DNA of 64,000 bases, from the sequence record NC_014467.1. One strand, given 5' to 3'. The notes beneath the pieces are model-generated. The model did no database searches. It worked only from the letters and a program-made list of their open reading frames with translations, and was not told where the DNA came from. The translations under genes and the position numbers were made by a program. Below are positions 4,005-51,770 of this stretch, in pieces (position 1 is the stretch's first letter; each line of letters opens with the position of its first letter). The stretch is from Escherichia phage RB16.

Positions 4005-5294
4005 TTATTTCAATTTCTTCGAAAGTTCTTTCAAATCATTGAGATATTCAGTTTTCGGGGTCGTTTCTTCCCAGTATTTCAGTTGCTTACGCAGTTCATT
4101 CGCTTCGTCTTCCAGCTTTTGACGTTCATCCGTGGTTAAATGGTAGATGTTCATCGCAACCAGGATTTCGGCGTGGTTCTCGCAACCCGCCCACGTAGAG
4201 ACAAGTTTAACCGCTTCGCTGCGACTAAGCCCCTTCAATGCGTCAGGCTGTGCGATCATCTGGTCGATGAAGTCAACCTTCGCCAGCGCTTTATCTAACG
4301 CTTCCTTAGTCTCCTGGATGCGTTTATCAATACGCTGTTGGTAAACACCAATACGGATATCAACGAAGTCTTTCAGCAACGTTTCAGGCCGCTCGTATGA
4401 ATGCAGTTTCCCGTTAAAGATAACGTTGATGTTCGGGTTTGAGTTCTCAATCAATCCGAAATCTTTCAGGATCTTCTCACGGGTAAGCCCGTTTGCGTAC
4501 TCACGTTTCAGGGTGATTTCGTAGCGGAAATCTTCTTTCGATAGATCCTTATAGCTTACGATATACCCTTTCTCTTCCAGCTTATCCAGAATAGAAATAT
4601 ATTTCACGCGATCATACTTGACCGGAATCTCTGTGATCACCAGTTTGGTTTTACCCTGGAGTTCGTACTTGCCGTACATCGTACCGTTTTCAATGTCACC
4701 TTTGAAATGCGGGTATTTCAGATCCAGCGTGAAATCTTTCCCGTTCAGGTAACTAACGCATCCATTCAGAACCGATACCGGATCATGTGGTGGAATGTTG
4801 GTAGCGTATGCTTTCGCGATCCCGCTGAACCCGTTAACCAATACCATCGGAATGATAGGCAGATAATAGGCAGGCGGTACGTGTTCAGGGTCTTCATGCG
4901 GAAGAGTTAAATCTTCGTCCATGTAGATAGCCTTGAACAGCGGAGACAGCTTACATTTGATGTAACGCGGTGCGCCTGGCTTCTTAACCAGACGGGAACC
5001 AAAGAACCCATCACGTTCGAAAAGCGGGATGTTGTTGCACCAGTGCGCCGCCATGAGAGACAACGCTTCTTCAACGGATGTTTCCCCGTGGTGATAACCA
5101 TACATAGCAACACCGCCAGCGATAGAGGCTACTTTCTGGAAGCCTGTACCGCCTTTTGCAGCGGAATGTATGAAGAAACGGTGAACGGGTTTGAACCCGT
5201 CTACCAGGTGCGGGATCGCACGAGAATAAATTGTGTAAAGGGCAAACGTAAGCCCTTCAACCTGCACAACGTCTTTAATACTTCGTTCCATCAA
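4005..5294 (-). CDS. 52: DNA topoisomerase II medium subunit (GyrA-like, gp52)
   Basis: 429 aa; GyrA N-terminal-like sequence; size matches T4 gp52 (442 aa); adjacent to gp39. Confidence 0.8.
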   Translation of the reverse strand: MMERSIKDVVQVEGLTFALYTIYSRAIPHLVDGFKPVHRFFIHSAAKGGTGFQKVASIAGGVAMYGYHHGETSVEEALSLMAAHWCNNIPLFERDGFFGSRLVKKPGAPRYIKCKLSPLFKAIYMDEDLTLPHEDPEHVPPAYYLPIIPMVLVNGFSGIAKAYATNIPPHDPVSVLNGCVSYLNGKDFTLDLKYPHFKGDIENGTMYGKYELQGKTKLVITEIPVKYDRVKYISILDKLEEKGYIVSYKDLSKEDFRYEITLKREYANGLTREKILKDFGLIENSNPNINVIFNGKLHSYERPETLLKDFVDIRIGVYQQRIDKRIQETKEALDKALAKVDFIDQMIAQPDALKGLSRSEAVKLVSTWAGCENHAEILVAMNIYHLTTDERQKLEDEANELRKQLKYWEETTPKTEYLNDLKELSKKLK

Positions 5295-48401: not shown

Positions 48402-48649
48402 ACGAAGCTAAAAAGATCCATCAAGCATGGTTGTTGATGGATACCCGAATGGTTCGATATGGTTGTGTTTTTGGTTTGGTTGACAACGATCCGAAATTGG
48501 ATATTGTAACAAGTCCGGTTGTTGAATACGAAATTCCTAGTGATAATTCGTATGTGATCGTGAAAACTCGTTCTGGTAGTACATATCATATTGTCGAACC
48601 AGACAACAATTTTCTGAAAGACCTTCTGAAATACATGGGCGACCGATGA
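48398..48649 (+). CDS. hypothetical protein
   Basis: Start placed at MNEAKKIH (ATGA coupling). Confidence 0.4.
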   Translation: MNEAKKIHQAWLLMDTRMVRYGCVFGLVDNDPKLDIVTSPVVEYEIPSDNSYVIVKTRSGSTYHIVEPDNNFLKDLLKYMGDR

Positions 48650-49170
48650 AATTACTTCATATGATCCGCGCCATACAACACAGCCAGGGTTCTCGATGTA
48701 TATCGACCCGTGTTGGTGCGGTTATTGTAATGAATGGGCGCGTGGTGTCCCAGGGTTCGAATAATACGGTTGATTCTGATTGTCGTTGTGCTGATCATAA
48801 CGAGCACATGCTGAATGATGAAGGTAAGCTGAAAGCTGTTCACCGTCCAGAACATTCAGCATGGTCGAACGACAACGAGATCCACGCCGAAATGAAAGCG
48901 TTGCTAAGTGCTCATACTAATGGTATCATGCTTAACAACGCAGAGTTGTACACAACCGCTTCACCGTGTCCGAATTGTGCAAAACACATCGAATGGTATG
49001 TTGCGATTGGTGCAATAACTGCTGTATACTACCTCGATAAATACGATCGTGGTAATGACGAATGGATTTCACGTTTGCAAAAATATGGTTGCAGAGTGGA
49101 ACAAATTAAACGGGAAGAGTTGGAACCTCATATCAACTTTTCTAATTTAGTGTTTAACAACAATGAGTAA
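48646..49170 (+). CDS. cd: dCMP deaminase
   Basis: 174 aa; zinc-binding deaminase motifs HAEMKAL and PCPNCA. Confidence 0.8.
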   Translation: MKLLHMIRAIQHSQGSRCISTRVGAVIVMNGRVVSQGSNNTVDSDCRCADHNEHMLNDEGKLKAVHRPEHSAWSNDNEIHAEMKALLSAHTNGIMLNNAELYTTASPCPNCAKHIEWYVAIGAITAVYYLDKYDRGNDEWISRLQKYGCRVEQIKREELEPHINFSNLVFNNNE

Positions 49171-49174
49171 CAAA

Positions 49175-49519
49175 ATGTCTGAATTGAAAGTAAAAGCATC
49201 TTTTGAATACGTGATTATCGAAGCAACTGCTCGACCGCAGGGTTCCGAAATCGTATCATCAACTGGCATTGTAGTAGGTGTGCGTCAACACGGGGAACAA
49301 CCGTATTTTGGTAAAGTTGTTTCTGTAGGGCCGGAAGTACCGGAAGAAAACGCAAAAGCCCTGCTGGGTAAAATGGTTCCGCTTCCACATGCTCAAATGG
49401 CGAATGTTCCAGATCCAGACCTGGTTGCTGGCTACATTTCCGAAAAAGAAGCAAAAGAGAAAGAAACGAAATACGTTTCCGCACATTACAAAGCAATCCA
49501 GGCAATCTACGAGATCTAA
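49175..49519 (+). CDS. 31: co-chaperonin (gp31, GroES-like)
   Basis: Start placed at MSELKVKA; C-terminal VSAHYKAIQAIYEI resembles T4 gp31 C-terminus; follows cd as in T4. Confidence 0.65.
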   Translation: MSELKVKASFEYVIIEATARPQGSEIVSSTGIVVGVRQHGEQPYFGKVVSVGPEVPEENAKALLGKMVPLPHAQMANVPDPDLVAGYISEKEAKEKETKYVSAHYKAIQAIYEI

Positions 49520-49521
49520 AA

Positions 49522-49773
49522 ATGGCTAAATCAATTCAAGCAATTATCGCTGATACCGTCAGCAAATCCAAAAAGCTGTTCGACAAAGGCGAAATTCTGG
49601 AAGCCCCAGCGCGTATTGACGTAATGACAGCAATGATCATTGATGCGCATCAGGGTAAACTTAAATCCCGTACCGATGAAGTCATGGCGTACATCGTCCA
49701 GTTCGAAGACGTATGTAAGTACGCGAAAGATGTTGATCCGCTGGTTCGCGAAATCTATCGCAAACAGTTCTAA
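49522..49773 (+). CDS. rIII: rIII-like lysis-inhibition accessory protein (by position and size)
   Basis: 83 aa (T4 rIII is 82 aa) directly after gene 31 as in T4; sequence similarity not verified. Confidence 0.4.
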   Translation: MAKSIQAIIADTVSKSKKLFDKGEILEAPARIDVMTAMIIDAHQGKLKSRTDEVMAYIVQFEDVCKYAKDVDPLVREIYRKQF

Positions 49774-49780
49774 AAATTCC

Positions 49781-49857
49781 GGCCCTTTAGCTTAATTGGT
49801 TAGAGCGGGTGACTCATAATCGCGCGGTTGCTGGTTCGAATCCAGCAGGGGCCACCA
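49781..49857 (+). tRNA. tRNA with anticodon CAU (Met, or Ile if lysidine-modified)
   Basis: Hand-folded cloverleaf: acceptor GGCCCTT/AGGGGCC, T-loop GGTTCGAATCC, anticodon loop CTCATAA, 3' CCA encoded. Confidence 0.75.
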
Positions 49858-49862
49858 AATAC

Positions 49863-49938
49863 GCAGGTGTAGTTCAATTGGTAGAATATCTGGTTTCCAT
49901 CCAGATTGTTGAGGGTTCGAGTCCCTTCACCTGCTCCA
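49863..49938 (+). tRNA. tRNA-Gly (anticodon UCC)
   Basis: Acceptor GCAGGTG/CACCTGC, T-loop GGTTCGAGTCC, anticodon loop TTTCCAT, 3' CCA encoded. Confidence 0.75.
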
Positions 49939-50087
49939 ATTCGGGTGCGTAGCGCAATGCCGTTAAATGGTTCGGAATATGCAACCTTATCGTATGCGAT
50001 AGGCTCTGTTGGTATCCGGTAATAGGTTCCCCGGAATGCGGGGTGAAGTAAAGAAACTTCCAGCCCACAAATTTAAAAGAGAAAAAT

Positions 50088-50510
50088 ATGAAAGGTCTTC
50101 AAAAGCTGTTTGATTTAACCCCACAAATTCGCGAAATCACTACCTCTGGTAAAAGCGACAATGAAATCAATAATGCATTGATGAAGTTTTTCACCGAAGA
50201 AATTGATGATTTCGAAACTCTGTTCCGTCACGCGTTAGAAGCGTATTCCGTGAACGGGTTCTTTGCATCACCACAGGTGAACAGCAAGAAACAATGCCAT
50301 CGTCGATTCTTCGACTGGTCGATCGTAAACGTGGTTCGCCGTACTGACATCGAACCAACAAATCACCAGTTGATGTCTGTTGATTCTGCTGTGTTTATCA
50401 TCCAGTATCTTATCAGCGGCGGTTTCAAATCGAACGATATTCCGTTCACAAATGAAGCTCTTATGGAAGAGTTTGCAGAAGCCCATAAGTACATCAAAGC
50501 AATTCGTTAA
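50088..50510 (+). CDS. hypothetical protein
   Basis: 140 aa; RBS GAGAAA; followed by terminator. Confidence 0.45.
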   Translation: MKGLQKLFDLTPQIREITTSGKSDNEINNALMKFFTEEIDDFETLFRHALEAYSVNGFFASPQVNSKKQCHRRFFDWSIVNVVRRTDIEPTNHQLMSVDSAVFIIQYLISGGFKSNDIPFTNEALMEEFAEAHKYIKAIR

Positions 50511-50515
50511 TCATC

Positions 50516-50541
50516 AGGCTATCTTCGGATAGCCTTTTTTC
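50516..50541 (+). terminator. rho-independent terminator (AGGCTATC-TTCG-GATAGCCT + TTTTTT)
   Basis: 8-bp stem, UUCG tetraloop, T-run. Confidence 0.6.
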
Positions 50542-51126: not shown

Positions 51127-51489
51127 ATGAAAGCATATCAGATTTTAGAAGGTTTACACACTGGCACAATCTACATGGAAGAAGGTAATGATGTTCGTGT
51201 GGTGGTATCCAAAACCCTCGAAATGGATTCAGTGATCGGTAAAGCTCGCGTTGCTCCATTCGCAAAACGTGAAGTCGATATTGAATTTCAACCCACTGTT
51301 AAAGTGGAAGGTGGACAACACTTAAACGTAAACGTGTTGCGCCGCGAAACTCTGGAAGATGCTGTGAAGCATCCAGAAAAATACCCACAGTTAACGATCC
51401 GTGTGTCCGGCTATGCAGTGCGTTTCAATTCACTGACTCCTGAACAACAGCGCGACGTTATCGCCCGAACCTTTACAGAGAGTCTATAA
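51127..51489 (+). CDS. autonomous glycyl-radical cofactor (GrcA/YfiD-like)
   Basis: 120 aa; C-terminal ~65 aa carry the glycyl-radical motif [25 protein letters not shown] and appear near-identical to enterobacterial GrcA/pyruvate formate-lyase C-terminus. Confidence 0.8.
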
Positions 51490-51770
51490 TGGCGATTGAA
51501 GACGTACAGGGCTATAAGCCCCATTCAAAAGAAAAGATCGACAAAGTAAACCGCATCAAGGCCGCTGAAATTGCCCTGGGCGAAATCTTCAAAGAACTGG
51601 ATGAAGAGTATTCAAGCGATTACGCGGTATCAGATACCGATTCATTCACCACAGAAGAACTCGATGCGATGCTTGAACGTGTCCATCAAATCCAACTGGC
51701 GAAAGACCGACTGAAAGAAGCCTCTATGTGGGCGTGTCGTGCGGTGTTCCAGCCAGAAGAAAAGTATTAA
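51489..51770 (+). CDS. hypothetical protein
   Basis: 93 aa; ATGG coupling with upstream gene; followed by terminator. Confidence 0.45.
   Translation: MAIEDVQGYKPHSKEKIDKVNRIKAAEIALGEIFKELDEEYSSDYAVSDTDSFTTEELDAMLERVHQIQLAKDRLKEASMWACRAVFQPEEKY

Follow-up and report, generated by a model that had tools for sequence, protein, structure and literature searches.

The stretch of DNA analyzed here (referred to as the window) comprises 64,000 nucleotides of Escherichia phage RB16 (NC_014467.1), an RB43-type T4-like phage of the genus Pseudotevenvirus with Enterobacter phages EC-W1 and Nando as best matches (98%). The region of interest follows a pair of tRNA genes, and its features are all on the + strand:

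48646-49170, +: dCMP deaminase (cd)
49163-49519, +: gene 31 co-chaperonin
49522-49773, +: rIII-like ORF
49781-49857, +: tRNA(CAT), Met (ARAGORN; Rfam tRNA, 60.6 bits); upstream neighbor in the same transcription unit
49863-49938, +: tRNA-Gly(TCC) with encoded CCA (ARAGORN; Rfam tRNA, 69 bits); its 3' end abuts the element described below
49939-50087, +: gap of 149 nt, up to the start codon at 50088, the first one downstream to have a ribosome binding site
49939-49942, +: AU-rich 5' flank AUUC, from alignments (AAUU-N in relatives)
49941-50068, +: conserved core, the element
50067-50087, +: AU-rich 3' flank, then ribosome binding site AAGAGA of the next gene; outside the conserved RNA
50088-50510, +: 140-aa ORF downstream of the element (phrog_6955, no assigned function); Yersinia phage JC221 lacks it
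50516-50535, +: Rho-independent terminator ending the unit; the same hairpin lies directly 3' of the element in JC221

The tRNA(CAT) gene, which ARAGORN assigns to Met, appears as tRNA-Ile2(CAT) in the authors' annotation of Citrobacter phage Citrof4.

The initial annotation described two tRNAs followed by a 149-nt non-coding gap up to the ribosome binding site of the gene at 50088, and ARAGORN, Rfam and the sequence itself agree with that layout. A protein-coding gene was rejected as an identity for the gap: stop codons occur in all three + frames of the core and no frame is conserved across relatives, as expected from the claim that no convincing sense ORF is present. The only long ORF in the gap is indeed antisense, a GTG ORF at 49874-50068 that overlaps tRNA-Gly. 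The GC hairpin that had been pointed out, CCCCGGAATGCGGGG, was found at 50029-50043, where it corresponds to helix P3 of the fold presented below. The gap is also not a tRNA cloverleaf, since ARAGORN detects none and the Rfam tRNA model has no match there even at E ≤ 10.

The element adjoins tRNA-Gly directly on the same strand, with no promoter detected between them. No promoter or terminator of its own was found for the element in the window, where the sigma-70 promoter scan stayed at background level, and no copy of the T4 late-promoter motif TATAAATA occurs anywhere in the window.

Segment-by-segment comparison with eight relatives showed 85-100% identity over the core 49941-50068. In the same comparisons, the downstream ORF reaches 53-78% identity and is missing from JC221, while the 3' flank 50067-50087 ranges from 53 to 100% identity, with a sharp fall-off in distant relatives. 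In more distant phages, tRNA-Met retains 77-83% identity and the spacer to the start codon decays fast. The span originally proposed, 49939-50087, is wider than the structured part, which is the core, and the remainder up to 50087 is AU-rich spacer and ribosome binding site. The core is a full-length match to the family covariance model (R1; cmsearch, 152.5 bits, E = 4e-44) and is its sole copy in the window.

On the window sequence alone the fold is no better than that of shuffled sequences (z = -1.15; 26 of 200 shuffles were as good), so the case for a structure rests on comparison with relatives. A consensus fold was calculated with RNAalifold from 13 distinct sequences and refined, after which 16 distinct sequences were re-aligned with a covariance model. 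The resulting elements are as follows:

49943-49946 (GGGU) with 50063-50066 (GCCC), +: P1, closing stem of 4 bp; 100% paired in 16 sequences
49952-49960, +: P1a, mini-hairpin GCG-CAA-UGC of 3 bp; 100% paired
49961-49971, +: junction CGUUAAAUGGU, nearly invariant; GUUAAAUG identical in 16 of 16 sequences
49972-49983, +: P2 5' strand UCGGAAUAUGCA, pairs with 50007-50019
49985-50003, +: variable hairpin Pvar, caps P2; sequence and length vary freely, pairing is kept
50007-50019, +: P2 3' strand UGUUGGUAUCCGG, pairs with 49972-49983
50020-50028, +: junction UAAUAGGUU, nearly invariant in the alignment
50029-50043, +: P3, hairpin CCCCG-GAAUG-CGGGG; 100% paired
50044-50062, +: A-rich 3' segment UGAAGUAAAGAAACUUCCA

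Across the 16 distinct sequences, 96.1% of the proposed pairs are standard and 13 of the 34 pairs have changed on both sides. The covariation score of 0.240 compares with 0.079 for shuffles, none of 500 of which reached it (a control that ignores relatedness), and with at most 0.055 for slid registers. The covariation analysis with related phages that had been proposed as a check came out in favor of a structured RNA, with a signal far above chance. The sequences come from only a handful of lineages, so the compensatory events that are independent of one another are few.

Compensatory changes are spread over the helices. In P1, a G-C pair is replaced by U-A in five sequences of the podovirus and POP12 lineages. 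P1a shows G-C to A-U in a podovirus contig (L059) and G-U alternating with G-C in four sequences. The 11 pairs of P2 are 98.9% paired and four of them have compensatory changes, one pair being seen as CG, GC, AU and UA. Pvar is the most changeable, with compensatory changes in five of its six pairs; its stem occurs, as judged by eye, as CCUUAUCG/CGAUAGG, CCCGGA/UCCGGG, CCAA/UUGG and UCUUG/CAAGA. P3 has C-G to U-A in RB43 and in L034. A further hairpin, P4 (GAAGU/ACUUC, 50045-60), is doubtful, being 87.5% paired with two of its five pairs often broken. The helices are linked by almost invariant, single-stranded junctions (CGUUAAAUGG, UAAUAGGU and GUAAAGAAAC). Two candidate long-range pairs were noted, each resting on single events; one of them, a possible tertiary pair of A50024 with U50058, is based on an A-U to C-G change in the T4-like contig L044.

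Several G-U pairs of the element are invariant, and the other strand would give A-C at these positions. In every genomic context the RNA strand is also the coding strand of the flanking genes. Both observations point to the + strand RNA as the functional form. Family members are 125-134 nt long, close relatives differ by 1-2 nt and the open frame shifts between members, so that no reading frame is conserved. By comparative sequence analysis, the element is shown to be a conserved, covarying sense-strand RNA fold of ~125 nt, that is, a functional RNA. With respect to the suggestion of a small stable RNA, a conserved, structured, non-coding, sense-strand element that is not a tRNA was borne out, while a relationship to the small stable RNAs of T4 was not.

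The 149-nt stretch is present in about 180-190 GenBank phage records. Its T4-like carriers are Pseudotevenvirus, Slopekvirus (KP15, KP27, Miro and others), JC221 and Pectobacterium phage POP12, and the stretch is 100% identical in phages with only 90% identity over the surrounding kilobase. A further copy was found in L044, a T4-like contig of 27.5 kb. Outside the T4-like phages, a diverged copy (~80% identity) occurs in five Drulisvirus podoviruses, which are T7-like Klebsiella phages: Kp_Pokalde_001, K40PH129C1, cp48, mtp6 and NTUH-K2044-K1-1, between the capsid-operon terminator and the gene for tail tubular protein A; their relatives KP34 and KP-Rio/2015 are without exactly this insert. 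At this site, two 44-kb podovirus contigs from IMG/VR have copies that have diverged further. In many other Drulisvirus phages (for example VLCpiA1n, KpV17Sklif and ZX22) this site is occupied by an HNH endonuclease gene, marking it as an insertion hotspot. In the Klebsiella phage CPRSB, a 5-nt insertion (GCGGGCGGGTG) interrupts the P3 3' strand (L016, ~1105-1115); it is probably a sequencing error or a damaged copy, and neighboring genes in that record are fragmented in the annotation.

No match to the element was found in E. coli genomes or plasmids, and a first pattern scan of the genomes of 100,044 species returned none. A looser pattern gave at least 120 matches in the species' genomes; the 81 examined among those listed were all heptamer repeats of the (TTGGTAA)n type, belonging to cyanobacteria, Chloroflexi and others, and none matched the model. 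In metagenomes and IMG/VR, scanned by pattern rather than by model, the element turned up only in the same phage lineages. Within the E. coli genomes, plasmids and 100,044 species' genomes scanned, the element is phage-only.

In many GenBank records the element is unannotated or lies under spurious or over-extended CDS calls. The annotated start of tail tubular protein A in Kp_Pokalde_001 and NTUH-K2044-K1-1 (L004 2600-3223 and L040 748-1434) is inside the element, and the KP34-type ATG of this gene lies downstream of it. Judging by record labels, T4-like phages such as VAC66 and Roth22/27/90 have spurious ORFs over the element called 'putative tail tubular protein A' or 'hypothetical protein', and in some Roth phages a feature labeled 'anti-CBASS protein acb2' overlaps it.

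The neighbors of the element differ from lineage to lineage on both sides, and small ORFs come and go there. Upstream, the tRNA-Gly of the window is replaced by a different tRNA in KP27 (annotated Gln; Gln or Leu in other Slopekvirus records). In RB43 the second tRNA is missing and the element, which is retained, follows tRNA-Met, while in CfP1 ~275 nt, apparently holding a small ORF, separate it from tRNA-Met. In L044 and POP12, whose loci lack tRNA genes, an ORF stop codon precedes the element; in the podoviruses, which have no tRNA nearby, the capsid-operon terminator does so. Adjacency to tRNA genes, taken initially as part of the likeness to T4, is therefore not a trait of the family. Downstream genes are of at least five different kinds across lineages, among them phrog_6955 in the window, phrog_3723 in Slopekvirus and leB-type phages, tail tubular A in the podoviruses and a DUF1328 membrane protein in L044. 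In several members the next gene is also set apart by transcription signals. In POP12, a strong terminator lies 14 nt after the element and is followed by a promoter-like site (TTGCAA-16-TATAAT) and then the next gene; a hairpin lies between element and next gene in L044. In JC221, the terminator directly after the element (L005 2125-2146) is the same hairpin (GGCTATCTTCGGATAGCC plus a T-run) as the one at 50516-50535 of the window, which identifies the 140-aa ORF as an indel between element and terminator. The element is independent of its neighbors and is present horizontally in two phage families.

These arrangements bear on the possibility that the element is a cis-acting leader of the downstream mRNA, a 5' domain left after tRNA cutting that would protect against RNase E, tune translation or serve as a riboswitch aptamer. 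Such a role would fit the position of the element: in Slopekvirus, RB43, the podoviruses and the window itself, 20-31 nt separate its end from a ribosome binding site and start codon on the same strand. The junction nucleotides, in addition, show a degree of conservation like that of ligand-binding RNAs. Nevertheless, the gene that would be controlled varies, the spacer and ribosome binding site are unconserved and do not pair with the element, and the signals in POP12, JC221 and L044 separate it from the next gene. A riboswitch with a terminator platform was considered for JC221 and rejected: that terminator was left behind when the ORF was lost and is thus not an expression platform. Neither a stable class of downstream gene nor an expression platform pairing with an aptamer was found, and no riboswitch family of Rfam matches. 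A leader is accordingly an unlikely explanation. The differing neighbors and the terminators of POP12 and JC221 argue against a regulator dedicated to the gene at 50088 and favor an RNA that functions by itself; conservation that does not depend on this gene likewise speaks against the element being merely its 5' UTR, which had been named as an alternative. In our reading, the element is an RNA gene in its own right and not the leader of the gene at 50088. As it ends 20-30 nt before the ribosome binding site in the window and in most T4-like members, it may still exert a cis effect on the next gene in these phages.

Other origins are less probable still. That the element is a decayed tRNA or a diverged homolog of T4 rnaC or rnaD is suggested by its position after tRNA genes and by a size near that of rnaC (139 nt) and rnaD (119 nt), but this idea is largely refuted and is the least probable of those weighed here. 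Neither ARAGORN nor the Rfam tRNA model RF00005 finds anything in 49939-50087; there is no T-arm and no acceptor-like 3' end, and the element is better conserved than the adjacent real tRNAs. The kinship to rnaC and rnaD implied by the initial annotation fails as well, since model R1 has no match in the T4 tRNA/rnaC/rnaD locus (L003) at E ≤ 10 and the local alignments to the two RNAs (scores 17 and 14) are no better than those of shuffles (means 14.8 and 14.4). An element acting as DNA, that is, a conserved recombination anchor or homing target kept by phage exchange with no function as RNA, would account for the mosaic flanks, for 100% identity where neighbors have 90%, for the Drulisvirus site that takes HNH endonuclease genes in other phages and for the small ORFs that vary on either side. 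However, four helices show compensatory changes and the invariant G-U pairs are strand-specific, which points to selection on a folded single strand, and Pvar varies in sequence and length yet keeps its pairing, unlike a DNA recognition site; we regard this explanation as very improbable.

An equally slim chance is given to an RNA anti-CRISPR of the Racr type, in which P3 and its flanks would mimic the repeat hairpin of type I-E CRISPR and trap Cas6e or Cascade subunits. The hosts are Enterobacterales, which often carry type I-E systems, and GGUUCCCCG-loop-CGGGG has GUUCCCCG and CGGGG in common with the E. coli I-E repeat GAGUUCCCCGCGCCAGCGGGGAUAAACCG. Racrs are known to exist in phages (PMC10651486). 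The resemblance, however, comes down to the 8-mer GTTCCCCG and its forced complement CGGGG, and 36 of 1000 shuffles score as well; loop and 3' handle differ, and the Rfam CRISPR-DR models have no match at E ≤ 10. The Klebsiella repeat matches no better than chance, and no full-length resemblance was seen to either of these two repeats. In addition, a stem pair has changed in RB43 and the loop in the podovirus copies, and the ~100 other conserved, covarying nucleotides would be superfluous for a solitary repeat. Two further likenesses were pursued and dropped. E. coli RNase P RNA has GGGUGCG in common with the element, but the alignment scores below the shuffle mean. The GTPase-associated center of 23S rRNA (1051-1108) has the words UGUUGG, GUAAUAG and UAAAGAAA in common with it, a result equaled by 52 of 2000 and 103 of 2000 shuffles, and other 23S windows have more in common.

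The Rfam scan proposed at the outset revealed no family. With Rfam 15, nothing in 49939-50087 matches at E ≤ 10, including riboswitches, ribozymes, sRNAs and CRISPR repeats; at the gathering score the whole window yields the two tRNAs only, and the divergent copies in L005, L044 and L059 yield nothing at E ≤ 1. A literal literature search for the sequence of the element returned nothing relevant, and no description of the family was found. We rate the element as a new RNA family within a known kind, the small structured RNAs of phages; its unusual feature is that it is common to unrelated T4-like and T7-like phages.

Several RNAs of this kind invite comparison. RNAC (species 1) and RNAD (species 2) of T4 are, like the element, non-coding, 119-139 nt long and adjoin tRNA genes on the same strand; both derive from transcription of the tRNA region, and what they do is still unknown (PMC3014915, PMC9697503). 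In contrast to them, the element is located downstream of cd, gene 31 and the rIII-like gene, has no detectable homology to either in sequence or structure, and lacks the tRNA-like T-arm sequence (GGGTTCGAATCCC) near the 3' end of rnaC; its family extends to T7-like podoviruses, and a position beside tRNA genes is not a constant feature of it. Racrs are similar in being small phage non-coding RNAs built around a GC hairpin, located in accessory regions and spread across unrelated mobile elements (PMC10651486). A Racr is essentially one repeat, whereas the GC hairpin of the element belongs to a covarying fold of ~125 nt that has five helices.

Larger RNAs offer a second comparison. ROOL and GOLLD are structured phage and prophage RNAs of several hundred nucleotides that often adjoin tRNA genes and constitute Rfam families. 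They resemble the element in being phage-associated, of unknown function and found by conservation and covariation; the element differs from them in its length of ~125 nt and in having no Rfam family. Enterobacterial sRNAs processed from polycistronic or 3' UTR transcripts form a general class, and many of the Hfq-binding ones end in an AU-rich stretch and a terminator hairpin. As with these, no promoter of its own was detected for the element, which is located at the 3' end of an operon or close to it, and the POP12 and JC221 copies are followed by an AU-rich stretch and a terminator hairpin. In the window and in most members, however, an ORF lies between element and terminator, and it is structure that is conserved in the element, not a linear seed.

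The explanation we prefer, with moderate confidence, is that 49941-50068 (+) encodes a phage-only, structured non-coding RNA of ~125 nt that is released and acts in trans as a self-contained module; we infer both the processing and the action in trans. The element would be part of a transcript that also covers cd, gene 31, the rIII-like gene and both tRNAs. Its AU-rich flanks would then be cut by the host nucleases responsible for maturing the neighboring tRNAs, at CCA|AUUC on the 5' side and at ACAAAUUU on the 3' side, the enzymes presumably being those that trim the tRNA 3' trailer. The 5' flank 49939-49942 is accordingly proposed as a nuclease entry site and might also provide a weak extension of P1. 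Cutting would release the element as a discrete small RNA, stabilized by P1, which would tie both ends together. The released RNA would be self-contained and would act in trans on some factor of the host or the phage, and the gene at 50088 would not be under its control. The distribution in two unrelated phage families suggests a function that works alone in any phage background.

The element is located in an accessory region, and an Acb2-like anti-CBASS gene is among its neighbors there. The encoded protein, with an Acb2/Tad1-hairpin domain of the anti-CBASS sponge family (PF24729, E = 2e-17), is at 51489-51770, 1.4 kb downstream of the element, and is preceded by a small glycyl-radical (GrcA-like) protein (PF01228, 51127-51489). 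In JC221 the Acb2-like gene comes directly after the terminator of the element.

Because of these accessory and anti-defense neighbors and the transfer between unrelated phages of the same hosts, a host-directed role of the element, for example as a decoy or sponge, is plausible and seems the most likely one. A more specific version, which we put forward tentatively and with rather low confidence, is that of a self-contained, horizontally exchanged, trans-acting anti-host RNA, for example a decoy or sponge for a host defense or RNA-processing protein or for an immune signaling molecule, whose gene would have passed on its own between the T4-like myoviruses and the T7-like podoviruses that infect Enterobacterales. 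If true, it would represent a new class of RNA-based counter-defense or host-takeover factor. A review of 2010 stated that no trans-acting small RNA or riboswitch had been functionally characterized in T4 and its relatives (PMC3014915). The element is a clean candidate for functional study, as it is among the best-conserved stretches of the locus, has a fold backed by covariation and is small enough to mutate and restore. Moreover, two unrelated phage families with the same hosts carry it as a bare insert, and many Klebsiella phage isolates are among the carriers.

Additional RNAs appear to accompany the element in some relatives. JC221 has a further non-coding stretch of 146 nt between tRNA-Gly and the element (L005 1845-1990), with a folding energy of -51 kcal/mol (z = -4.09; none of 200 shuffles as good) and a closing stem of 7 bp (GGAGUCG/CGGCUCC). 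It looks like a second small RNA, for which blastn found no relatives and comparison with rnaC and rnaD no significant similarity. The resulting layout of tRNA, RNA, RNA and terminator is reminiscent of tRNA-Arg, rnaD and rnaC in T4.

In the 44-kb podovirus contig L059, the element has a long hairpin (ACAACAGGTAAGAGCA...TGCTCTTTCCGTTGTG, 4512-4602) on its upstream side. About 40 other phages contain the final 28 nt of this region, which extend into the P1 strand GTTGTGGTG, with 93-96% identity. Among these sites are the Q-to-holin late leader of the P22-like phage IME10 (L191 1140-1228) and a position just upstream of two tRNAs in the Klebsiella siphovirus ZCKP8 (L190 1110-1228). The interiors there match neither Rfam nor model R1. 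At these sites GTTGTGGTG has a downstream counterpart, CACCACAAC, and the two enclose a different interior; the arrangement looks like a common scaffold for different RNA cargos.
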